This document shows positions 23,093 to 37,605 of a DNA stretch of 64,000 bases, piece by piece. A program made the translations under genes and the position numbers. Position 1 is the stretch's first letter; each line of letters opens with the position of its first letter. The DNA is from Longimicrobiales bacterium. GTDB lineage: Bacteria > Gemmatimonadota > Gemmatimonadetes > Longimicrobiales > Gaopeijiaceae. The stretch covers positions 3,200,001-3,264,000 of the forward strand of contig OZ242008.1 in assembly GCA_965204735.1 (NCBI GenBank), read 5' to 3'. Below the pieces are notes generated by a model. It did no database searches. It worked only from the letters and a program-made list of their open reading frames with translations, and was not told the DNA's origin.

Positions 23093-23922
23093 GCGCCGCC
23101 CCGACTCCCGCCGAAGCGGCGGCGGCGGTCTTGGCCGCCCGGAAGATGGGACGACGCATCTGCACTGCCGTGGTGACCCGCTCCGCCAGCGGCCTGACGG
23201 GCAACCGCTGCTGGATCACGGACGGCGCGTTGACCGGCTCGCTGGGGGACCCTGCCCTCGACGCCGCCGTGGCAACCGCCGTTTCGACGGTCTTCCGTGC
23301 CCAGGAGTCGTTCGGGGCGGTTCGTCGCGAGTTCGACTACGAGGACCCGGCGGGCGCCGATTGCGTCGCGACCGTGTACATCGAGCTGCACGCGCCGCCG
23401 GCCAAGCTGGTGGTCGTGGGCGCGGGACACGTGGCAGTGCCCTTGGCCCGGATGGGCGCCATGCTCGGGTTCCGCGTGGAGGTGCTGGACGACCGTCCCG
23501 AGTTCGCCGACCCCGCTCGCTTCCCCGAAGCCGCCGCCGTCCGCGTAATCGACTTTCGCGACCCCTTTGCCGCCACGAGGTTGACGCCGCCCGACCATGT
23601 CGTGCTGGTCACTCGCGGCCACCGCTTCGACTACGAGTGCCTCGCGCGCCTCCTGCGGATGAAGCGTCCGCCGGGCTACGTGGGCATGATCGGCAGCCGC
23701 CGGCGAGTTCGCGCCACGCACGAACAGCTGGCGCAGGAAGAGTTCACTCTCGAAGAAATGAAGCGCGTGCGGGCTCCCGTCGGCCTCGACCTGGGCGGCC
23801 AGACCCCCGCCGAAATCGCCGTGTCCGTCGCTGCGGAGATCGTCATGCACCGCTCCGGCGGCACCGGCGCTCCGCTCTTCCGGAAGGAGCGGGTTGCGGA
23901 GCGGTTCTTCACGCGACGCTAG
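23089..23922 (+). CDS. XdhC family Moco-insertion chaperone (Rossmann domain)
   Basis: VVGAGHVA, LDDRPEFA, TRGHRFD, YVGMIGSRRR, PVGLDLGGQTPAEIAVS. Confidence 0.9.
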   Translation: MSAAPTPAEAAAAVLAARKMGRRICTAVVTRSASGLTGNRCWITDGALTGSLGDPALDAAVATAVSTVFRAQESFGAVRREFDYEDPAGADCVATVYIELHAPPAKLVVVGAGHVAVPLARMGAMLGFRVEVLDDRPEFADPARFPEAAAVRVIDFRDPFAATRLTPPDHVVLVTRGHRFDYECLARLLRMKRPPGYVGMIGSRRRVRATHEQLAQEEFTLEEMKRVRAPVGLDLGGQTPAEIAVSVAAEIVMHRSGGTGAPLFRKERVAERFFTRR

Positions 23923-23983
23923 CGAACTTCGAGCCCGCCTTCTTCATGGGGACGCGCGGGGACCAGCTCCTCGGCGGCCGCGA

Positions 23984-25030
23984 CTAGGATGCCGCCATCT
24001 TGCGGGCCACGTCGGCGACCATGTCGCGCAGGTCCTGGGGCTCCAGCACCTCGGCGTCGGCTCCGAAACGGAGGACGTGAGCGGCCAGCCACCAGGGGTC
24101 GGCAACGCTGTGTCGGACCGTCACGCTGCCGTCGTCGTGGCTTTCCAAGGACACGCTTCGGTACGCCGCTCGCTCCTCGATCCAACGGACGACCGCGGGC
24201 GAGTAGCGCACCACGGCCTCTCGACTGCCCGGATCGAGGATCCAGCCCTCGGGGGTGCGCGTCAGGTACGCGTCGGCGTCGAACTCCTCGGGCACCGCGA
24301 AGGTCCCGTCGCAGTGATCGAGCGACAGAATCCTGTCCAGTCGGAAGACCCGCTCGGCGCGAACCGTCGTGCACTTGGCGACCACATACCAAGTCGTCTC
24401 CGAGTTCACGACCAAGTAGGGGTGAACGACCCGCCGGGACGGGGCCTCGGCCCCGGGCTTCAGGTAGCGGATGGCGCAGGGCCGACGTTCGTAGACGGCG
24501 GTCGCGAGGGTTTCGCGGATGCCCCACAGGTCGGGAGTTCGGCTGGGCAGCGCCAAGTTGGGGGTCGCGTCCGAATCCGAATCTGCGCTCTGGCTCAAGC
24601 AGCGTTCCGCGCGGCGGAGGAATGCGTCCCATGCCGTGTGGTCGCCGGCGGGCGGACCGGAGTGGTTGCCGGCGGCGGCAGTCGACGGCCCCTCGTCGTC
24701 CGCGTCGGTCATCACGCCGCGCAGGGCCAGGGCCAAGCAGAACATCTCGCGACCCGTAAGCCGGAAGGGGCGCTCCATGAAGCTGGTGTGCTCGACCTCG
24801 ACCCGACCCGACTCCATGAAGATGCGGATGTCGCCCGGCCATCCGCCGGGTCGGTACTCGTCGCGAGTGGTCAGCTCCCGCAGATCCTCCAGAATCTGCT
24901 CTTCCGTCGTATCCAGGTCCCTGGCGAGGGCGGCGACGTCGGTCCCGCCGGGCCGGCTGGCGACTGCAACGACATAGGCCAGCCGTTCGAAGCGGCTCCG
25001 GGCCGTGCTTGCGCCCGACCTACCGATCAT
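23984..25030 (-). CDS. HTH-WYL-WCX transcriptional regulator, PafC-like
   Basis: N-terminal HTH (LARDLDTTEEQILEDL), RPFRLT, RRVVHPY...WYVVA...RVFRLDRI, C-terminal WLAAHVLRFGADAEVLEP. Confidence 0.9.
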   Translation of the reverse strand: MIGRSGASTARSRFERLAYVVAVASRPGGTDVAALARDLDTTEEQILEDLRELTTRDEYRPGGWPGDIRIFMESGRVEVEHTSFMERPFRLTGREMFCLALALRGVMTDADDEGPSTAAAGNHSGPPAGDHTAWDAFLRRAERCLSQSADSDSDATPNLALPSRTPDLWGIRETLATAVYERRPCAIRYLKPGAEAPSRRVVHPYLVVNSETTWYVVAKCTTVRAERVFRLDRILSLDHCDGTFAVPEEFDADAYLTRTPEGWILDPGSREAVVRYSPAVVRWIEERAAYRSVSLESHDDGSVTVRHSVADPWWLAAHVLRFGADAEVLEPQDLRDMVADVARKMAAS

Positions 25031-26201
25031 GGGAGACGCTCCCGTCGGGGTCGAACGCGCTCCGGTCGTACTCGCCCGCCACCGACCCGGCCATCGCGCG
25101 AAACTCCTCGTGCATCTCCGGCGGGGTCACGATGCGCGCCTCTCCCAAGAGGCTCATGATCCATCGCAGGAACGCGTTCCGGTTGCGCACCCGGAAGCGT
25201 CGGAGCTGCTCGCCGCCGGGACGGAGTTCCAGAAGCTCGCCGAAGCCGTTGCGCTCGGCCCAGGACGAACGCGGAACCCTGAACAAGACGTCCGCTTCCT
25301 CCGGCTCCCTCCGCATGTCGCCGAGCTCCCACGCATTGAGGCCCGAGTAGTCTGCCAAGCGAAAGCTGGCCGGGAGGCTGAAGTCGGGCGTTCCCGGCGA
25401 TCGGGCGCCGGCGACGAGCCGGTTCATGCGCCCCACGCGAAAGATGCGGATGTCCTTCCGGTCGTCGTCGTGGCCGATCAGGTACCACTTGCCGAACTCG
25501 AAGAGGAGCCCGTAGGGACGAACCCGGCGGTCCGTCTCCTCGGGCCGGCTCATGCCCCGATACCGGAACGTCACCTGCTTCCTCCGACGGAGCGCCGCGG
25601 AGAGGCCGGCCAGCAGGTGGGACGTGGCGACGGCTTCGGGGTCCGGCGCGTAGAGCACCGGCGTGCCGGCGGGAACAGCAGGTCCCAGGTCCGTGGCCAG
25701 CTTGCGAAACGCCGAACGGGCGTCGGCGGCCCAAGGGAAGGCGGGGAGGGTGGAAATCTCCTGCAGTCCTCGCAGGGCCGCGTCCGCCTCGTGCCTGGCG
25801 AAGGCGAAGTGCAGACCCAGGCGGGCGCGGCCGGCGGTCCCGGAGGGCGAAGCGTCCGGCTCCGCCGGCCGGTCGGCTTGCAGGAGTTGCAGGACGGGCA
25901 GCCGATAGCCCGGCGCCAAGCGGTAGGCGACCACCTCTTCGGCGCCGAAGTGCTTTCTCTGCACCACCGATTCGATCGGCACCCCCAGCGACCGAAGCTC
26001 GTCCTTGTCGCGCTCGAAGGTGCGACGCACGGTCGCCTTCTGCTGCGCGCTCCCGTCGAGCCCGTGGGAGTAGGCGGGGACCTGGCTCCAGATCTCGGCC
26101 CTCTCCAGCGGGAACTGACGCTTTGCCAGACAAGCCACCAAGTCGATCCAGCGCTGGAGCTTGGTGGGCTGTCGCGTGCCCGGGTCGGATCGATCGGTCA
26201 T
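25020..26201 (-). CDS. HTH-WYL-WCX transcriptional regulator, PafB-like
   Basis: RRTFERDKDELRSLGVPI (PafB-type HTH), RRVRPYGLLF..GKWYLIGHD...RIFRVGRM, WIMSLLGEARIVTP. Confidence 0.92.
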   Translation of the reverse strand: MTDRSDPGTRQPTKLQRWIDLVACLAKRQFPLERAEIWSQVPAYSHGLDGSAQQKATVRRTFERDKDELRSLGVPIESVVQRKHFGAEEVVAYRLAPGYRLPVLQLLQADRPAEPDASPSGTAGRARLGLHFAFARHEADAALRGLQEISTLPAFPWAADARSAFRKLATDLGPAVPAGTPVLYAPDPEAVATSHLLAGLSAALRRRKQVTFRYRGMSRPEETDRRVRPYGLLFEFGKWYLIGHDDDRKDIRIFRVGRMNRLVAGARSPGTPDFSLPASFRLADYSGLNAWELGDMRREPEEADVLFRVPRSSWAERNGFGELLELRPGGEQLRRFRVRNRNAFLRWIMSLLGEARIVTPPEMHEEFRAMAGSVAGEYDRSAFDPDGSVSHDR

Positions 26202-26245
26202 CTGGCGGCTCCGTTCCTGCAAGTGAATGTGCGCAAATCCGCTTC

Positions 26246-26267
26246 AGTCTAGCAAAGGGGAGCGACA
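26246..26267 (-). promoter_or_regulatory. PafBC-type (RecA-NDp-like) promoter facing the WYL pair
   Basis: Minus strand TGTCGC-TCCCCTTTGC-TAGACT = TGTCGN-N10-TAnnnT. Confidence 0.65.
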
Positions 26268-26312
26268 CTCCCGTCCAGGCGAGTCCGGCGAGCCGCGGCA
26301 GGGCCCGGAGGC

Positions 26313-26334
26313 TGTCATACCCCCCGCCTACTTT
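26313..26334 (+). promoter_or_regulatory. PafBC-type (RecA-NDp-like) promoter facing the two lipoprotein genes
   Basis: TGTCAT-ACCCCCCGCC-TACTTT = TGTCRN-N10-TAnnnT. Confidence 0.65.
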
Positions 26335-26460
26335 GCCGCGTCTTTCCCGAACCTGGGCCAGCCGGCTTGTCGATTGCGCGACGCCAGCCGCCAACCGAAC
26401 CGGCGACGCGAACGGCAGGGCCGGGACCAACCAGCCCAACACCAGAGGAGAACGCAGCGA

Positions 26461-26811
26461 GTGAACACGAACAAGAAGACGGGCCTCTTCCTGGCGGTCG
26501 TCGCCCTGGCCTCCTGCTCGGATCCGGTGGGGACGCCCGAAGACGTCGGCGCCGTCACAGGCCTCGTCGTGATCGGCAGCGTGCCTGCGCCGAACGTGCA
26601 GGTTGCGCTGGACGGGAGCACGGTCCGATCCACCGACGCCTCCGGCAAGTACCGGTTCGTGGACCTGACCGTGGGCGACAGCTACGGAGTGGCGGTCGTG
26701 GCCAGCACGCTTCCGGAGCATGTGGAGATGCATGTGGCGGAGCATCAGGTCACGGTGCCCGAAAGCCGCGTGGCGTACGCAAACTTCTTCGGGAGCCGCA
26801 AGCAGCCGTAG
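26461..26811 (+). CDS. Small lipoprotein with carboxypeptidase-regulatory/Ig-like beta-sandwich
   Basis: GAGGAG RBS, GTG start, lipobox LASC, V.VAL...TDASGKYRF..L..G.Y pattern. Confidence 0.75.
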   Translation: MNTNKKTGLFLAVVALASCSDPVGTPEDVGAVTGLVVIGSVPAPNVQVALDGSTVRSTDASGKYRFVDLTVGDSYGVAVVASTLPEHVEMHVAEHQVTVPESRVAYANFFGSRKQP

Positions 26812-26902
26812 TAGTCCCGGTCGCTCTCGCCGGGGAACCGGCGGGACGCGGAGCGCCCGCCGACGGGCGACCAACCAAGAACAACAACAGAAAGAGAAGA
26901 AG

Positions 26903-27319
26903 ATGACGAAGACGAAGAGAGCATGGAGCGCGGCGATGATCTGCGTCGCTCTGATCCAGGTGGGCGGGTGTTCCTACATCGCGCACTCGGAGCCGGCCCG
27001 CGGAGGCCCCGAGGACGCTTTCTGCACGCCGTCCAGGGTGCCCCACACCGTGGACGCCGCCGCAGCGCTTCTCGCTCCACTGGCCGGCATGGCGGTCGGG
27101 TTTCTTGCGCCGAGCGCCGAGGAGAACTCGCGGTGGGCTCCGCTCGCGGGCTTTGTCGCCGGCGGCGTGCTGTCGGGCGCCGTCGTCGCGCCGTCGTACA
27201 GGCACGGCACGGAAGAAGCGGCAGCGTGCCGGGCGGCGCGTCTGGCGCGCGACAGGGCCTGGACCGAGTACTGGGCGGCGCAAGACACGGCAGCCAAGCC
27301 GTCCGAGGGACAGCGCTAG
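26903..27319 (+). CDS. Small lipoprotein with two hydrophobic helices bracketed by a Cys pair
   Basis: Lipobox VGGC; FCTPS...[TM-TM, Gly-rich]...AACR. Confidence 0.7.
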   Translation: MTKTKRAWSAAMICVALIQVGGCSYIAHSEPARGGPEDAFCTPSRVPHTVDAAAALLAPLAGMAVGFLAPSAEENSRWAPLAGFVAGGVLSGAVVAPSYRHGTEEAAACRAARLARDRAWTEYWAAQDTAAKPSEGQR

Positions 27320-27471
27320 GCCGAGGCCGGGATTGCCCCTCGGGGCAGGCGTCGTCGCTGCGGCAGTGCTAGCTTGGTGGACACGTGGGGGCTGCCATGC
27401 GGGCCGAAGCCCCGAGGCTGGGCTTGGCCGCAGGCTGGTCCTCGATCTGCTTGACTCGATGGAGCGGCGCC

Positions 27472-27828
27472 ATGGACGAAAGCGAGCTGCTTGATGTTCT
27501 TGCCGACGTGCGCGAGCCCGCCGTGCTGGCGACGGTGGTGGCGACGAAGGGGTCCACGCCCCGGAAGGCCGGCGCCAAGATGCTGTTGGGCAAGGACGGC
27601 TCGATCGCGGGCACCATCGGAGGCGGGTGCGGCGAGGGCGAGGTGATTGCCGCCGCCCAGGACCTCTTCGACGGCGGGCCGCCCACGACCGTCCGGATCG
27701 ACCTGACCGACGACCTGACTTCGTGGAGCCCGGCCGTGTGCGGCGGGATCATGGACGTCTTCATCGAGCGGGCCGACGCGGGCGAAGCCGCTTCCACTCG
27801 GGAAGGGTCGCCGCGAAGACGAGGGTGA
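27472..27828 (+). CDS. Stand-alone XdhC/CoxI N-terminal domain protein
   Basis: LATVVATKGSTPRKAGAKM, GTIGGGCGEGEV, CGGIMDVFIE. Confidence 0.88.
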   Translation: MDESELLDVLADVREPAVLATVVATKGSTPRKAGAKMLLGKDGSIAGTIGGGCGEGEVIAAAQDLFDGGPPTTVRIDLTDDLTSWSPAVCGGIMDVFIERADAGEAASTREGSPRRRG

Positions 27829-28216
27829 TCGCGACGGCCGACGCCACGCAGTACCGGCACCATGCGCGGATCACGAACGCCTCGAGATAGGTGAGCCAGG
27901 CGCTGAAGAGCACGCCGGCGAGGGCGCCGCCAAAGAGAAGGAAGGCGACCGCCCGCGAGGGCGCGAAGCGCCGTTGCAAGCCCAGCGTCGCCAGCGCGAA
28001 GAGGGCCAGGTATCCGGCCACTCCGATCCCGGAGACGGGAACCGGCCCCACCCACGCCCAGCTGGAGGACTGCACGGTCCCGCAATCGCCCGAGCCGCAC
28101 TGGATCGATCCGGCCCAGCCCAGGTTGTGGGCTGCCAGGTAGAACGCGAGGAAGGCGCCGCCCAGAGACACGACGGCCACGACCATGCGGTTTCGGGGCA
28201 GGGCGGCGTCCGCCAC
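27761..28216 (-). CDS. Vitamin K epoxide reductase (VKOR) family protein
   Basis: CGSGDCGTVQSSSWA, C-terminal WCRYC (CxxC), TM helices; follows DsbA. Confidence 0.9.
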   Translation of the reverse strand: MADAALPRNRMVVAVVSLGGAFLAFYLAAHNLGWAGSIQCGSGDCGTVQSSSWAWVGPVPVSGIGVAGYLALFALATLGLQRRFAPSRAVAFLLFGGALAGVLFSAWLTYLEAFVIRAWCRYCVASAVAITLVFAATLPEWKRLRPRRPAR

Positions 28217-29727: not shown

Positions 29728-30747
29728 TCAGGCCGCCTCGGGGCCGGCCGCCAGGATCTCGCGGAGCAGGGAAGCGTCCAGGTTGCCCCCCGAGAGGACG
29801 GCGCAAACCCGGCGCCCCCGGGGCGAGACCGCGCCCGAGAGGAGCGCCGCCACCGTGGCCGCGCCCGAGTACTCCACCACCAGCTTGCGGCGCTCGATCA
29901 GGTGGGCTGCGGCGCGACGGATGGCTTCGTCGGACACCAGGACCACGTCGTCCAGGAACGAGGCGGCGCAGGCGTAGGTGAGGTCGCCGGCGCGGGTGGG
30001 CGCCAAGCCGTCGGCGATCGTGTCGGTCCGCCCCAGGGTCACGGGGCCGCCGGCGTCCAAGGCTCGCCGCATTGTGGGCGCTCCTTCGGGCTCGACCCCC
30101 ACCACCACCGCTTCAGGGCGCAGGCGGCGCATCGCAAGGCCGCAGCCGGCAGCTTGTCCCCCGCCGCCGATCGGCGTCAGCAGCATGTCGACTTCGGGCC
30201 ACTCCTCCACGACTTCCAGCGCCACGGTTCCCTGGCCCGCCACGATCCACGGGTGGTCGAAGGGCGGCACCATGACCAGCCCCTCCGCCTGGGCGATCTC
30301 CTCGGCCCGGACCCTCCGCTGCTCGGAGGTGGTTCCGGCGAACTCGACCCGCGCGCCCAGCCGTCGGGCGCCGTCGCTCTTGACCTTGGGCGCAGTGGTC
30401 GGCATCACCACGACGGAGCGCGCGCCGGCCCGCCCCGCCGCGAACGCCACGGCCTGGGCGTGGTTGCCCGAGGAGTAGGTGACCACGCCGCGGGCCAGCT
30501 CGTCGGGCGGGAGTTGGCCCAAGAAGTTGGTCGCGCCCCTGGCCTTGAAGGAGCCGGCCTTCTGGAGGGATTCGCACTTGAGCCGGACTTCGCTCGCCAC
30601 TGCTTCGGAGAGGTCGGCGTCGGGCACCAGGGGAGTCCGCGCGACGGTCCCCCGTATCCGGTCCGCCGCCGCGCGCACGTCGGCGAGAGACACGTCGGGG
30701 GTCGAAGCGGCCGCCCCGGGACCGCCGGACGACGGGGCGCCGGTCAC
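29728..30747 (-). CDS. PLP-dependent threonine/serine dehydratase
   Basis: [42 protein letters not shown]. Confidence 0.9.
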
Positions 30748-33392
30748 GAAGACGCTTCCCCGCTCGCTCCGCCGGCCGAGGCCGGGCCGGAGCCGGCCTC
30801 CTCCAGGCCGTCCGCCCCCGCTTCCGCCGGCCCGGACGCCTGGGGGTCGTCCTCGTCTTCGTCGGTCGCCCCGTCGATCACCCTGGCCACGTCCACCACC
30901 ACGTCGCCTTCGTCCAAGTTGACCAAGCGCACGCCCTGGGTCGCTCGTCCGATCACGCGGAGCTCCGACACGTTCTGCCGGTTCACGACGCCCTTGCGGG
31001 TGACCACCATGAGCTGGTCGTCGTCGGTCACCGACTTCACGGCCACCACGGGTCCCGTCTTCTCGGAGGACTTCAGGTTGATCACGCCCTTGCCGCCGCG
31101 GAACTGGAAGCGGTAGTCGCCGATCTCGCTCCGCTTCCCCATCCCGTGCTCCGTCGCCACCAGCAGCGTGGCGTCGGGACGACGCACCACCACCATGCCC
31201 ACCACCTCGTCGCCCTCGTCCAGGCGTATCCCCCGCACGCCGGCGGCGGTGCGCCCCATCGGACGGGCGTCGGACTCGCGGAAGCGGATCGCCTTTCCCT
31301 TGCGGGTGGCCAGAAGCACTTCGTTGTCGCCTTCGGTGAGCTGGACGTCGATCAGGGCGTCGCCCTCCCGCACGCCGACGGCGTATATCCCCACCGCCCG
31401 CACGTTGCCGTAGGCCGACAGGGGAGTCCTCTTCACGACCCCGTTCCTGGTGCAGAAGAGGAGGAACCTGTCCTCGGGGAACTCCCGCACGGCCACCACC
31501 GACGCCACCGACTCGCCCGCGTTCAAGTCGACCAAGTTGACGATCGGCTTTCCCCGGGCCTGCCGGCTTCCTTGGGGAATGCCCCAGACCTTGACCCAGT
31601 GGCACCGGCCCCGGTCGCTGAAGACCATGAGGTAGTCGTGGGTGGAGGCGACGAAGACGTGGTCGACCCAGTCCTCCGCCTTGGTGCCCATGCCCCGCAG
31701 CCCCCGTCCTCCGCGTCGCTGGGCCCGGTAGGCGCCGATGGGGATGCGCTTCACGTAGCCCTGGCGAGAGAGGGTGATCACCACCTCTTCGTCGGCGATC
31801 AAGTCCTCCACGTCGAACGACGAGACCCCGCCCACGATCTTCGAGCGGCGGTCGTCTCCGTACTTCTCGGCGACCTCCCGCAGCTCGTCCTTGACGATGC
31901 CGAGGCGGACGCCCAGGTCGCCCAGGATCCGTTCCAGCTCGGCGATGCGTTCCCGCACCTGGGCGAGCTCCGCGTCCAGCTTCTCCATCTCCAGACCCGT
32001 CAGACGGGCCAAGCGCATGTCGAGGATGGCCCTGGCCTGGCGCTCCGAGAGAGCGAAGGCCTTGCGCAGGCTCACCGCCGCCTCGGCCGCGTCCTGGGAC
32101 GCCCGGACGATCCGCACCACCTCGTCGATGTTGTCCACGGCGGTGCGGAGACCTTCCAGGATGTGTTCCCGCTCCTGGGCCGCCGCCAAGTCGAACTCGC
32201 TGCGCCTCACCACGACGTCGTGACGGTGATGGAGGAAGTGGGCCAGCATGTCGAGGAGGGGCATCACCTTGGGGACGCCGTCCACCAGCGCCAGAAGGAT
32301 GACGCCGAAGGTGGACTGCATCTGGGTGTGCTTGTAGAGGCGGTTCAGGACCACGTGGGGCACCGCTTCCCGCTTCAGCTCGACGACGATCCGCATCCCG
32401 TCCCGGTCCGACTCGTCCCGCAGGTCGCGGATGGAGGTGATCCGCTTCTCCCGCGCGAGGGCGGCGATCTGCTCGATGAGGCGAGACTTGTTCACCATGA
32501 AGGGGATCTCTTCGACGACGATCCGGTCCGGTCCGTCGTCGTGTTCCTCCACCACGGCCTTGGCCCGCAGGACGATCCGGCCCCGACCTGTTCGATACGC
32601 TTCGCGGACTCCCCTTAGGCCGCAGACGTAGCCGCCGGTGGGGAAGTCGGGAGCTGGGATGAGCTCGCGCAGCCGGCTCCTCATGGCCGACTTGCGCCCT
32701 GTCTGGAAGAGGTCGAACGCTTCCTCCGAGCGCGCCGGACGGCCCCGGACGATCGCCTCCACGTCGCCCCAGGGCATCTCGTCGATCACCGCGACCAAGC
32801 CGTCCACCACTTCCCGCAGGTTGTGGGGCGGGATGTTGGTGGCCATCCCCACGGCGATTCCCGAGGACCCGTTGACCAGAAGGTTGGGCGCCTTGGAAGG
32901 GAGGACCGACGGCTCCTGGAGGCGGCCGTCGAAGTTCTCGTCGAAGCGGACCGTCTCCTTGTCGATGTCCGCCAGCAGCTCCATGGAAAGGCGGTGGAGC
33001 CGGGCCTCCGTGTAGCGGTAGGCCGCCGCCGAGTCGCCGTCGATGGAGCCGAAGTTGCCCTGGCCGTCGACGAGGGGGTAGCGGAGGGAGAAGTCCTGCA
33101 CCATCCGCACCAGGGCGTCGTACACCGCCGAGTCGCCGTGGGGGTGGTACTTGCCCAGCACCTCGCCCACCACGGTTGCACACTTCTTGTAGGCGCGTCC
33201 GGGGGAGAGTCCCAGCTCGGACATGGCGTAGAGGATGCGCCTGTGAACGGGCTTGAGGCCGTCCCGGACGTCGGGCAGGGCGCGCTGCACGTTCACGCTC
33301 ATCGAGTAGTCGATGAACGACTCGCGCATCTCCTGCTCCAGAATGCGCTCGAGGACCCGTTCGCCGGGACCGCTTGGGGGGTGGTCGGCCAT
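30744..33392 (-). CDS. gyrA: DNA gyrase subunit A
   Basis: [38 protein letters not shown], GyrA-box QRRGGRG, C-terminal pinwheel repeats. Confidence 0.97.
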
Positions 33393-33506: not shown

Positions 33507-34561
33507 GCCATGGCGACGAACTCCCGGCCCTCCTCCAGGCCTGCCCGCGAAGCCGCTTGCCGCACCGCCCGTCGGCCTTCGCGGCGCGCCACCGCGCCGA
33601 CGTGCAGGACGGCCCCGCAGGCGTGGGCTCCGGCGGCGTCCAGGACCGGCGCGCCGTGGATCCGCTGGCCGATCTTCCGGCGGTCCACCTCCACGAAGCC
33701 GGTCACTGCCACCCCCTGGCGCAGGAACTCCAGGGCGAGCCGCTTGCCGGTGGGACCCGCACCCCAAACCACGACGCCTTCCTTGCCGGCGAGGAGGCTG
33801 CGGCGGAGGTGGTGGACCCGGCACGCCCGGAAGGCGTCGAGGGAGTAGGTCGGGTGGGAGCGGCTGAGGCGGTCCGGGCCGTGGCGCCAGGCCAGCAGCG
33901 CTCGGGGAACCGAGGCGAAGCGTCGACCGGCGCGCCACAGGCGGAGGAGGAGGTCGTAGTCCTCCGGCCATCCCCGGTCTCGGTAGCCGCCGACGGAAGC
34001 CAGGGCTTCGGCGCGGAACATGAATGACGGGTGGGCCAAGGGGCACTCCACGAAGACGTTGGCCGCCACCGTCTTCCACTCGGTCATGGCGTTCAGCCAG
34101 GCGGCGTACTCGGCGGCCCGCTTGGTCACGGCGGAATCCGGGAAGCAGCGCACCTGGGCGCCGCAGCCGGCCAGTCCGGTGCGCCGGAGAAACTCCAGCT
34201 GGACCGCCAGCCTCTCGCGACGGCAGAGGTCGTCGGCGTCCATCCGGGCGACGATCGGCGCACGGGCCGCCGCCACGCCGCGCCGGAGGGCGGGGACGAT
34301 CCCCCTGCCGGGGTTTGCAAGAGCTCGAAAGCGCCGGTCGCGGGCCGTCCACTTCCGCAGGATCCGAGGGGTCGCGTCGGCGGAGCCGTCGTCGACGACC
34401 ACGACCTCGAACTCGCGGAGGGTCTGGCGGGCCAGGGACTCCAGAGCCGCGTCCAAGGTGGCGGCGCCGTCCCGGACTGGGAGGACCACCGAGACCTGGG
34501 GACGGCCGGCGGTCGGCGGCTTGCGCGAGGCGGGCCGGTCGGCCGGCTGGGCGCGGCTCAA
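33503..34561 (-). CDS. Glycosyltransferase family 2 with C-terminal Rossmann-like domain
   Basis: VSVVLPVRD, VVDDGSAD, RMDADD, HPS, EDYDL, VWGAGPTG; TTG start overlapping uvrA stop. Confidence 0.85.
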   Translation of the reverse strand: MSRAQPADRPASRKPPTAGRPQVSVVLPVRDGAATLDAALESLARQTLREFEVVVVDDGSADATPRILRKWTARDRRFRALANPGRGIVPALRRGVAAARAPIVARMDADDLCRRERLAVQLEFLRRTGLAGCGAQVRCFPDSAVTKRAAEYAAWLNAMTEWKTVAANVFVECPLAHPSFMFRAEALASVGGYRDRGWPEDYDLLLRLWRAGRRFASVPRALLAWRHGPDRLSRSHPTYSLDAFRACRVHHLRRSLLAGKEGVVVWGAGPTGKRLALEFLRQGVAVTGFVEVDRRKIGQRIHGAPVLDAAGAHACGAVLHVGAVARREGRRAVRQAASRAGLEEGREFVAMA

Positions 34562-37500
34562 GGGCGGCCGGCTTGCCGACCTGCGGGGGCGGGCGAGCCG
34601 GGGGCCGCCGGCGACCGAGACGCGTCCAGCGCGCCCCGGAGGTACCGACCCGTGACGCTCGCGGGCGTCCGGGCCACCTCTTCCGGGCGGCCCGTCGCCA
34701 CCACTCGGCCGCCCTTCGCCCCTGCGCCCGGTCCCATGTCCACCACCCAGTCGGCCGCCGCCACCACGTCCAGGTCGTGCTCCACCACCACCAGCGTGTT
34801 GCCCGCGTCCACCAGCCTGCGCAGCACCCCGTTCAGCTGCGCCACGTCTTCGCCCGAAAGGCCCGTGGTGGGTTCGTCGAGGATGTAGAGCTTGCGCCCC
34901 GCGGACTTGGCGCCGCCGATCAGCTCCCGGGCGATCTTGAGGCGCTGGGCCTCGCCCCCCGAGAGCGTCGTGGCGGGCTGTCCCAGGCGCAGGTAGCCCA
35001 AGCCGGCCTGCTGAAGGTGCCAGAGGGCTTGGCCCAGCTTCCGTTCCCGGATGAAGAAGCGCATCGCCCGATCCACCGTGAGCCCCAGCACCGCGCTCAC
35101 GTCCATGCCGCGCACCTTCACGTCCAGCACTTCGGGACGGTACCGCTTCCCCCCGCACAGCTCGCACGGAACGTGGACGTCGGCCATGAAGACCATCTCC
35201 ACCGCCACGTGGCCGGCGCCCTTGCACGCCTCGCAGCGTCCTCCCTCCACGTTGAAGGAGAAGGCGCCGGGAGCGAGCCCGGCGGAGGCGGCGGCGGGCT
35301 GGGCGGCAAAGAGGCGGCGCACTTCGCCCCACGCCTTCACGTAGGTCACGGGGTTCGAGCGGGGAGTGCGTCCGATCGGGCTCTGGTCCACCAGAACCAC
35401 CCCGGCCAGGTGCTCGTGGCCGGTGAGGGACCGGAAGTCGCCCACGGCTTCGCCCATGTGCTCCTTGGCCGTCGTCTCGCCCCCGCCGAGCGTCCGTTCC
35501 AGGGCTCGGTAGAGCACGTCGTGGACAAGGGTGGACTTCCCCGAGCCCGACACCCCGGTCACCACGGTCATCGCGCCGACGGGGAACTCGACATCCACGC
35601 CTTGAAGGTTGTGGAGGTCTGCGCCCTCGAGGCGGAGGCGGGGCAGGTCGATCAGCCTGCGACGGGGCGGCGGTGCGGCGCGGAACCGGCCCGAGAGGGA
35701 ACGTCCGGCGCTGGTCTCGGCGGAGAGGAGGGCCGCGGGCGGGCCTTGGAAGACCACTTCCCCGCCGCCCTCGCCAGCGCCCGGGCCCAGCTCCACGACG
35801 TGGTCGGCCGCTTCCACCGCCGCGGCGTGATGCTCCACCACGACCACCGTGCTGCCGGCGTCCCTGAGGCGCGCCAGCACTCTCATCAGCGCGCCCACGT
35901 CCCGGGGGTGGAGCCCGATGGAGGGCTCGTCCAGCACGTAGAGGGTGTCCACCAGGGTCGAGCCCAAGGAGTTGGCCAGGGCAATGCGCTGCGCCTCGCC
36001 GCCGGAAACGGTCCGCATCTGCCGGTTCAGCGAGAGGTAGCCCAGCCCCACGTCCAGCAGGAAGCCGACGCGGGCCGACAGCTCCTGGAGGATCGTGGCC
36101 GCCACCCGGGCCTCCATGGGCCGCAGCTCCAGCCCGGCGAGCCACGCGCGAAGGTCTTCCAGGGGCATCGCCGACGCCGAAGCGATCTCCCGACCGCCGA
36201 CGCGCACTTGCCTGGCCTCCGGCTTGAGCCGCGTCCCGTCGCACGCCGGACAGCGGCTCGGACGCTGGTAGCGGCGGAGGAAGACCCGGATGTACGCGCG
36301 GTAGCGCTTGCGTTCCTTCGAGACGAGGAAGTCCATCACCCCCTGGAAGGACTCCGTTCCGTAGAGCACGGCGTCCCGGAAGGGCTGGGACAGCGCCCGC
36401 CACGGGGCGGTTGGCGAGACTCCTTCCCGGGCGGCGAAGCGACGAAGCGCGTTGCGCTCCCGGGAGTAGCGGGGCTGTGCCCAGGGATCCACGGCGCCCT
36501 CCTCCAGCGACCGGTCCTCGTTGGGGACCACCAGGGTCGGATCGTACTCCAGCGTCTCGCCGAAGCCGCTGCACCTGGGGCAGCTGCCGTAGGGGTTGTT
36601 GAACGAGAAGAGGCGCGGGGCGGGCTCGAGGAAGGTCGTCTTGGGGTGGCGGGGACAGCGAAAGCGCTCGGTGAAGCGCATCTCCTCGCCGGGGGCGGCG
36701 CCCGGGCGAAGAACGACCGCTTCGCCCTCGCCCTCCCGGAAGCAGGTGGTCAGGGAGTCGGCCAAGCGCTCCCGCCACTCGGCGGAGCACGCCTGTGGAA
36801 CCTTGACCCGATCCACGACCACGAGCGCCTCCCGGGCCGTCGCCAAGTCCAGGGGCGCCGTCGGCGGAGTCGTCGCGCAGCCGCCGGAGCGCCTTGGAGC
36901 GCCCGAGCCTCCGGAGGCGTCGGAACCGCCCCGGCCCGAGTCCGTCGCGTCCCCGACGTCCACTGCGACGTTGCGACGACGCGGGTCTCCATCGACGACG
37001 CCCCGGCCCGACTCTCCCGCGTCCCCGACGTCCACCGCGTTCGCGACGTCCACTTCGACTCCGTCGGCCAGCGCCCTCACGAAGCCCATCGCCCGCAGGT
37101 TCCGCGCCAGCTCGCGGTGGGACACTCGCCCGCTCCTGGCCAGCGGGAACGCGACCATCAGGCGGGTCCCCGGCGCCACCTCGGCGATCCGGTCCACGGC
37201 GCCTCCCACCGAGTCGGGGCGCACTTCGTCGTCGCACTCGGGGCAGTGGGTGCGGCCGGCACGGGCGTAGAGGAGCCGCAGATAGTCGTACACCTCGGTG
37301 GCGGTGCCCACGGTGGACCGACTGCTCGTGGTCCGGTTCCTCTGCTCGATCGCCACCGCCGGCGAGAGCCCCTCGATCCGGTCCACGTCGGGCTTCTGCA
37401 GCCGGTCCAGGAACTGCTTGGCGTAGGTGGAGAGGGATTCCACGTAGCGCCTTTGCCCCGCGGCGAAGAGGGTGTCGAGCGCAAGGGAGGACTTGCCCGA

Positions 37501-37605
37501 TCCGGAACGGCCCGTGATCACCGTGAGGGCGTTGCGGGGCAGGTCCAGGTCGATCTCCTTCAGGTTGTGCTGCCGGGCGCCCCTGATCCGTATCGGTCGG
37601 TTCAT
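34558..37605 (-). CDS. uvrA: Excinuclease ABC subunit A
   Basis: GARQHNLK, two Walker A motifs (GRSGSGKS, GVSGSGKS), SGGEAQR signatures, LDEP, Zn-finger CxxC pairs. Confidence 0.93.
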   Translation of the reverse strand: MNRPIRIRGARQHNLKEIDLDLPRNALTVITGRSGSGKSSLALDTLFAAGQRRYVESLSTYAKQFLDRLQKPDVDRIEGLSPAVAIEQRNRTTSSRSTVGTATEVYDYLRLLYARAGRTHCPECDDEVRPDSVGGAVDRIAEVAPGTRLMVAFPLARSGRVSHRELARNLRAMGFVRALADGVEVDVANAVDVGDAGESGRGVVDGDPRRRNVAVDVGDATDSGRGGSDASGGSGAPRRSGGCATTPPTAPLDLATAREALVVVDRVKVPQACSAEWRERLADSLTTCFREGEGEAVVLRPGAAPGEEMRFTERFRCPRHPKTTFLEPAPRLFSFNNPYGSCPRCSGFGETLEYDPTLVVPNEDRSLEEGAVDPWAQPRYSRERNALRRFAAREGVSPTAPWRALSQPFRDAVLYGTESFQGVMDFLVSKERKRYRAYIRVFLRRYQRPSRCPACDGTRLKPEARQVRVGGREIASASAMPLEDLRAWLAGLELRPMEARVAATILQELSARVGFLLDVGLGYLSLNRQMRTVSGGEAQRIALANSLGSTLVDTLYVLDEPSIGLHPRDVGALMRVLARLRDAGSTVVVVEHHAAAVEAADHVVELGPGAGEGGGEVVFQGPPAALLSAETSAGRSLSGRFRAAPPPRRRLIDLPRLRLEGADLHNLQGVDVEFPVGAMTVVTGVSGSGKSTLVHDVLYRALERTLGGGETTAKEHMGEAVGDFRSLTGHEHLAGVVLVDQSPIGRTPRSNPVTYVKAWGEVRRLFAAQPAAASAGLAPGAFSFNVEGGRCEACKGAGHVAVEMVFMADVHVPCELCGGKRYRPEVLDVKVRGMDVSAVLGLTVDRAMRFFIRERKLGQALWHLQQAGLGYLRLGQPATTLSGGEAQRLKIARELIGGAKSAGRKLYILDEPTTGLSGEDVAQLNGVLRRLVDAGNTLVVVEHDLDVVAAADWVVDMGPGAGAKGGRVVATGRPEEVARTPASVTGRYLRGALDASRSPAAPGSPAPAGRQAGRP

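Follow-up and report, generated by a model that had tools for sequence, protein, structure and literature searches.

The window analysed here is the whole stretch of 64,000 nucleotides, which belongs to a genome of 4.14 Mb with 69% GC (the source genome, G000). The nearest named relatives of this genome are Longimicrobiales, with Gemmatimonadaceae and Gemmatimonadales farther off, which places it in Gemmatimonadota. Two promoter-like boxes lie back to back in it, between a pair of regulatory genes and a pair of lipoprotein genes. On the minus strand, a predicted PafBC-type promoter of the form TGTCGC-N10-TAGACT (26267-26246) faces a pafB-like gene; its -26 box, TGTCGC(TCCCC), begins at 26267, its -10 element TAGACT occupies 26251-26246 and its start is predicted at about 26239. 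On the plus strand, a second predicted promoter, TGTCAT-N10-TACTTT (26313-26334), faces the lipoprotein genes, with the -26 box TGTCAT(ACCCC) from 26313, the -10 element TACTTT at 26329-26334 and a predicted start near 26341. The 45 bp between the -26 boxes (26268-26312) are not conserved and hold no -35 consensus, and a scan of positions 23800-27900 found no canonical sigma-70 promoter. A sequence-only reading of this DNA had described two TGTC-N12-TAnnnT boxes, and their coordinates, strands and 45-bp gap were all confirmed in the sequence. The pafB-facing -26 box also sits in the loop and one arm of an inverted repeat, GGGAG-TGTCG-CTCCC (26257-26272), which is not conserved in the three other genomes of the genus (G001-G003).

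The pafB-like gene (25020..26201, minus strand) encodes a protein of 393 amino acids with wHTH, WYL and WCX domains, and its stop is overlapped by the pafC-like gene (23984..25030, minus strand; 348 amino acids; HTH_PafC, WYL and WCX). These are the sole WYL genes found in the source genome, and the best solved matches of the pair are PafB and PafC of Arthrobacter and M. smegmatis, with M. smegmatis PafC the best match of the pafC-like product. The first gene behind the plus-strand promoter (26461..26811, plus strand) encodes a small predicted lipoprotein of 116 amino acids with a LASC lipobox, which resembles a carboxypeptidase-regulatory-like domain below the Pfam cut-off. It is followed by a second small predicted lipoprotein gene (26903..27319, plus strand; 138 amino acids; VGGC lipobox; no Pfam family). 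The flanking genes are thus those that had been read from the sequence, a pafB/pafC-like WYL pair on one side and two genes with lipobox-like cysteines on the other. Genes that we take to be gyrA-like and uvrA-like lie at 30744-33392 and 34558-37605 of the window (minus strand), 4-11 kb from pafBC; second copies are found at about 4025355 and 721274 of the source genome, and the uvrA-like gene of the window has no PafBC-type site.

How much weight can the boxes bear? The pattern TGTC-N12-TAnnnT matches twice in the window, at these two boxes alone, yet shuffled windows give 0.58 matches on average and 13 of 100 reach two or more, so that the count alone is not significant. A genome-wide scan, which the sequence-only reading had proposed, returned 42 matches of the short pattern against 22-60 at other spacings; as there is no enrichment, the short pattern is unusable as evidence. 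From these 42 sites, only about 0.01 divergent pairs at most 100 bp apart would be expected. Stronger evidence than the number of matches is, in our view, conservation across related sequences. A PafB homologue is present in 28 of the 61 related genomes, and across the phylum 57 of 201 sampled genomes have one (one additional weak partial match being scored negative), a patchy distribution. Within 300 nt upstream of pafB, GTC-N12-TAnnnT is present in 11 of 23 order-level relatives (27 PafB-positive genomes minus four that lacked the N-terminus or upstream DNA) compared with 0-1 at spacings 8-19. Among 43 further pafB loci (two of the 43 from one genome), 14 have it upstream, and each other spacing accounts for 0-2. 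Both boxes and the divergent lipoprotein gene persist in the three remaining genomes of the genus, while the spacer between the boxes varies in length and sequence and is about 34 bp there. Altogether, a detectable site is found at 37 of 69 pafB loci, many pafB genes having none, and the back-to-back layout at seven of the 69; the arrangement is also seen outside pafB loci, between cas operons in G020 and in G100. The consensus of the 29 strict sites, tGTCacaccc, is asymmetric, spans -28 to -19 and extends to ACACCC at -24 to -19; the information at -35 is zero, and only two of the 29 sites have a TTG-type -35 hexamer. This comparison supports the boxes as a real feature of the locus. In a PafB tree, built by a quick search that had no outgroup from Actinobacteria, the labels group by family (13 changes, compared with 31.6 after shuffling), but the families are not single clades. 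The pafB gene appears split or frameshifted at G107:C21, G112:C29, G176:C2, G216:C2 and G108:C6, by sequencing error or decay.

When the source genome was ranked with a matrix built from the relatives alone, the top three sites were those at 2820321 and 2182919 and the plus-strand box of the window, and the minus-strand box came sixth. An extended pattern, defined post hoc, finds exactly the same four sites in this genome at spacing 12. The suggestion that the regulon may be local therefore does not hold, since the two further strong sites lie 0.4 and 1.0 Mb away and a weaker one is found at a cas3 gene. The site at 2820321 stands before a type IIG restriction-modification-like gene and that at 2182919 before a gene for a small exported protein with weak similarity to the second lipoprotein of the window; both recur with the same genes in G002. 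The cas3 gene with the weaker site, 55 bp upstream of it at 2079843, belongs to a type I-G locus that adjoins a CRISPR array. In this region (C1:2078500-2096000; L133, L303), the array has a 61-bp period and lies beside the operon cas3g/cas8g/cas7g/csb2, and a second cas3g is found 13 kb downstream. No strong site was found in the scan of 12 repair regions of the source genome, upstream of recA, both uvrA genes, uvrC, uvrD, recN, recG, mfd, mutS, ku, dnaE and the ruv operon, and the earlier remark that uvrA has no such motif is borne out for both copies. Gene calling gave 2806 genes and 84% coding; the target list of this genome may be incomplete because the gene caller missed genes.

The position of recA was followed across the phylum. 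A strict site is present at recA in five of 29 PafB-positive genomes (one of the five being a poor match) and in none of 27 others, with four of the 60 loci not parsed. A different element, the direct repeat TTCG-N7-TTCG, is found upstream of recA at 52 of 56 Gemmatimonadota loci (L222-L281), compared with 1-5 at other spacings. In the source genome the recA copy lies at C1:2495299, and four copies stand in tandem before lexA (C1:1441053-1441100); this genome has two genes with a LexA domain. From its position, the repeat is likely to be the LexA box of this phylum; our search on LexA and the SOS response in Gemmatimonadota found no relevant literature on it. The repeat is also near two genes that we presume to be repair-like, at 182703 and 1338339, and it lies about 50 bp before a 444-amino-acid transposase-like gene that has more than 10 copies in the source genome (for example at 257826, 340331 and 1892203), an arrangement that suggests SOS control of an insertion sequence.

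For the relatives, the DNA behind most matches was fetched and a hand-picked subset of open reading frames was scanned (35, 47 and smaller subsets). The listed target loci include some from PafB-negative genomes, and other matches were background. Recurrent targets are pafB itself and genes for vWA proteins (L038, L074, L078, L194, L202, L206), ARPP-1 (L060, L076, L212, L215), TM0106 nucleases (L033, L044, L163), PD-(D/E)XK AddB-like proteins (L063, L084, L188, L214, L219), DnaQ-like exonucleases (L066, L213), DUF2779 proteins (L173, L203, L207), and Cas1-Cas4, Cas7g and Cas3 (L046, L189, L068, L071). Small lipoproteins or exported proteins form a further set, some with Ig-like or PEGA domains (L190, L193, L204) and others with no family (L067, L165, L168, L195, L197, L220). 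Seen in a single case each were RecC-like, RecJ, RecA, a type I restriction subunit, an HmaA-like helicase, HNH, SNase, Csx1 and ADP-ribosylglycohydrolase. Two coaBC-like loci (L062, L081) and several antisense matches, where starts appear to fall in mid-gene, were set aside as coding background. TM0106 genes are present in 13 of 57 PafB-positive genomes and in six of 143 others, and they carry a site in seven of 12 PafB-positive cases and two of six others. At the cut-off of the weight matrix, cas3g has a site at none of five loci in PafB-positive genomes and at one of 16 in others; a general CRISPR regulon was rejected on these counts, many cas3g genes probably being internal to operons, and CRISPR control is sporadic since cas3g mostly has no site. 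The vWA and ARPP-1 sites in relatives are often beside pafBC, and these genes may constitute an uncharacterised co-regulated module, as their position suggests. Taken over these loci, the regulon is likely to be an accessory one. Besides pafBC itself it would take in small lipoproteins, genes for vWA and ARPP-1 proteins, nucleases of the end-processing and other kinds and, sporadically, genes of restriction and CRISPR systems.

Does the protein pair have what is needed to read such a promoter? The window protein was aligned to M. smegmatis PafB, and the roles of residues were taken from the accessible parts of two reports (PMC8635444; PMC11804915). The HTH arginines R46 and R50, which read GTC, are kept as R60 and R64; the backbone contacts K5, R8, K52, R56 and Y76 as K14, R17, K66, R70 and Y93; and the WYL residues that bind ssDNA (R181, Y196, R204, R208, R211 and R214) as R225, Y240, R248, R252, R255 and R258. 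E42 and A43 of M. smegmatis PafB are Ala and Thr here. In a set of 51 homologues, picked by an ERDK pattern that is still present at 44 of 45 loci not so chosen, R17, R64, K66, Y93 and Y240 (window numbering) are found in all, R60 in 50, R255 in 48 and R258 in 49; the positions of M. smegmatis R204 and R208 are less constant (28 and 39 of 51). In M. smegmatis the aromatic wing tip, W70, inserts between sigma 3 and the beta flap; in its place there are His84 and Phe85 in the window protein, and this position is Phe, Tyr or His in 17 of the 51 rows and a gap in 27. The sigma side of the complex differs: in 17 aligned primary-type sigmas, domain 4 keeps R442 in all, has Tyr for R416 in all, and has Glu, Asp or Asn for S446. 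On the PafC side, the residue aligned with the acidic D62 is Arg or Ile in the window protein and, in a set of 40 homologues, mostly Gln. The source genome has three short paralogues of primary-type sigma-70, at C1:1890989-1892140, 185505-186464 and 149373-150335, and the one that was scanned scores below all RpoD cut-offs.

The claim that a PafBC-type promoter class exists in this phylum thus stood, the sites being linked to pafBC and specific in spacing, while its other half, that sigma adaptation itself operates, did not carry over directly, given the changes at R416, S446 and PafC D62. Because of these three changes the pair falls outside a strict definition by sigma interface; the conclusion that it works like PafBC stands despite this, and the predicted PafC-sigma surface is rewired here. 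We consider it probable that a PafB/PafC-like heterodimer, activated by ssDNA, fires both -10 elements through sigma adaptation with PafC seated on the rewired surface of sigma domain 4. By analogy with mycobacterial PafBC, ssDNA would enter the WYL/WCX tunnel of the heterodimer, the HTH of PafB would read GTC at about -26 and the HTH of PafC would prop sigma domain 4, so that a housekeeping-type holoenzyme could fire at a -10 with no -35, which is sigma adaptation. Transcription in both directions would then yield lipoprotein mRNA and pafBC mRNA, and the response would amplify itself through the positive feedback on pafBC. The sequence-only reading had also assumed positive autoregulation; the presence of a site before pafB fits this, and its sign follows only from the absent -35 and from the behaviour of mycobacterial PafBC.

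The same residues can be taken another way. PafB may read the -26 box and activate without sigma adaptation, with PafC on another surface of the polymerase or on none, by a recruitment like that of DriD or DdaA. R416, S446 and D62 are not conserved, the wing of PafB is short in 27 of 51 rows, and the ACACCC extension at -24 to -19 suggests different contacts. We nevertheless find this unlikely, as the distance to the -10 agrees exactly with that in mycobacteria and sigma domain 4 has no -35 to hold, the site lacks palindromic symmetry and the pair is heterodimeric, R442 is invariant, and the binding site of DdaA, as described in the accessible part of its report, is some 50 bp ahead of the start (PMC12392091).

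Whether it is this pair that reads the box at all can be judged from where the sites occur. An extended pattern derived from the pafB-upstream sites (TGTCRSACCC-N6-BANNNT) was counted in 200 genomes of the phylum. The 57 that have PafB hold 131 sites (2.30 each) and the remaining 143 hold 88 (0.62), while a reversed-pattern control gave 47 (0.82 each) and 128 (0.90). Of 13 genera with both kinds of genome, PafB-positive members are higher in ten, lower in none and tied in three, and in 20,000 within-genus permutations no total as high as the observed one came up, kin not being independent. Among 150 of 220 matches listed, 78 are TGTCACACCC sites, 11 of them in PafB-negative genomes; the other 67 strong sites listed, in PafB-positive genomes, are within 10 kb of pafB in 23 cases, farther away on the same contig in six and on other contigs in 38, mostly in fragmented assemblies. 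Good sites with no detected WYL domain were seen in eight genomes (G027, G019, G028, G038, G237, G188, G124 and G162); the WYL-domain search of site-bearing genomes missed the broken pafB of G112, which a separate PafB search found.

Sites are also present in viral DNA. A scan of viral contigs with TGTCACACCCC-N5-TAnnnT returned at least 125 stretches, most probably by chance. Four contigs (G252-G255), chosen for having several matches among the 80 loci listed, carry about 4-8 TGTCACACCC-type sites each (L349, L360-L362, L391-L393, L417-L418), some before small open reading frames and some back-to-back. Phages may use the PafBC of the host or an adaptor of their own.

One could therefore propose that another protein reads the box, be it one of the three primary-type sigmas of each genome or an unrelated activator, and that pafBC is merely one of its targets; the sites in the eight genomes where no WYL domain was detected, and the clusters in the four viral contigs, in which no WYL gene was found, would fit. 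We hold this to be very unlikely, since the number of sites follows PafB even within genera, the count in PafB-negative genomes does not exceed the control, and the GTC-reading arginines of PafB are near-invariant. As for the viral clusters, two of the four contigs encode WhiB, which suggests actinobacterial hosts with PafBC.

The direction of control is a separate matter. A repressor released by ssDNA, similar to CapW or BrxR, might keep its own operon and the defence genes silent up to the moment of damage: autoregulation, a divergent layout and defence targets are typical of WYL repressors, in part as given in the accessible text of two reports (PMC9122588; PMC11662680), and a protein bound at -28 to -19 could block the polymerase. 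We regard it as highly improbable that the pair acts in this way, because these promoters have no -35 that would let them work unaided, a strict phase to the -10 is needed by an adaptor and not by a repressor, the site has no symmetry, and the best matches of the two proteins are PafB and PafC. That the boxes are a chance match, or that the pafB-facing one alone is functional, is scarcely credible, for all the lack of enrichment of the short pattern, the 13 shuffles in 100 and the rarity of the divergent pair among pafB loci, when four genomes of the genus preserve both boxes around a changing spacer and the boxes rank third and sixth genome-wide by a matrix built without the source genome.

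A wider picture can be drawn around the preferred reading, that of a PafBC-like pair acting through sigma adaptation. In it, the system would be a self-amplifying alarm for foreign or damaged DNA, separate from LexA, which works through a co-evolved surface between PafC and sigma domain 4 (R416Y, S446E/D/N, D62Q), deploys nucleases, restriction, CRISPR and lipoproteins, and may be borrowed by phages. We offer this fuller version only tentatively, as a possibility that in all its parts may well prove too broad.

In the openly readable literature, supplements excluded, we found no publication on PafBC in Gemmatimonadota, and, judged by titles, none that describes PafBC promoters in phages or in bacteria other than Actinobacteria. 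A single regulator, in a single phylum, has been shown to use sigma adaptation, which its authors proposed as a principle for mycobacteria along with other actinobacteria, as far as the accessible part of the report goes (PMC8635444). The present analysis contributes the back-to-back layout and its conservation, the lipoproteins as targets, the association within genera, the altered contacts with sigma, the LexA-type repeat and the clusters of sites in phages. Now that a distant diderm phylum offers a matching protein pair and promoter class, the generality of sigma adaptation is directly testable, and the differing sigma contact residues show which contacts are essential. The rewired regulon, in which recA is left to a LexA-type repeat, suggests that the ssDNA sensor may serve stress from invaders and not core repair. 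Through the motif, uncharacterised co-regulated genes become accessible as well, namely those for vWA, ARPP-1, TM0106 and DUF2779 proteins and the small lipoproteins.

The closest known system is PafBC of mycobacteria, and this comparison, like those that follow, refers to the accessible portions of the cited reports. The mycobacterial RecA-NDp/PafBC promoter is described as tGTCgg(N10)tA(N3)T, and the window boxes have the identical -26/-10 geometry, with no -35 in either (PMC8635444). Shared with M. smegmatis PafBC (PDB 7P5X, 9FND and 6SJ9; PMC8635444, PMC11804915, PMC6789036) are the pafB-pafC gene order, the domains, the GTC-reading arginines and the WYL residues that bind ssDNA. Unlike mycobacterial PafBC, the system here belongs to another phylum, is patchy in distribution, has the consensus tGTCacaccc and leaves recA mostly outside its regulon, whereas the mycobacterial one centres on recA and core repair genes; sigma R416 and S446 and PafC D62 are changed, and a search for Pup_ligase found no Pup ligase in any of five genomes, in contrast to the linkage of mycobacterial PafBC to pafA and the Pup-proteasome locus. 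A site also stands before pafBC itself here, whereas PafBC of M. smegmatis does not regulate itself (PMC5656591), its levels are constant on damage and deletion of pafBC leaves pafA mRNA unchanged (PMC8635444, PMC5656591); autoregulation here would therefore be a genuine difference.

Other WYL regulators resemble the pair in part. DdaA of Moraxellaceae (PMC12392091) is likewise a WYL activator that ties DNA damage to repair, restriction-modification and CRISPR genes. It is a single protein, however, with its site about 50 bp upstream of the start, and its authors regard sigma adaptation as improbable; moreover, DdaA replaces the SOS response, whereas here a LexA-type repeat persists at recA. 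DriD of Caulobacter crescentus (PMC10853764) is a WYL activator that is activated by ssDNA and acts outside the SOS response, but it is a homodimer with a palindromic site that binds DNA without polymerase, whereas the pair here is of the heterodimer type and its asymmetric site is phased to the -10. Set against the single protein and the palindromic or upstream site of DriD and DdaA, we find two distinct WYL genes and an asymmetric site. With CapW and BrxR the pair has in common that WYL regulators adjoin and control defence genes; these two are single-gene repressors, whereas the promoters here, with no -35, fit activation.
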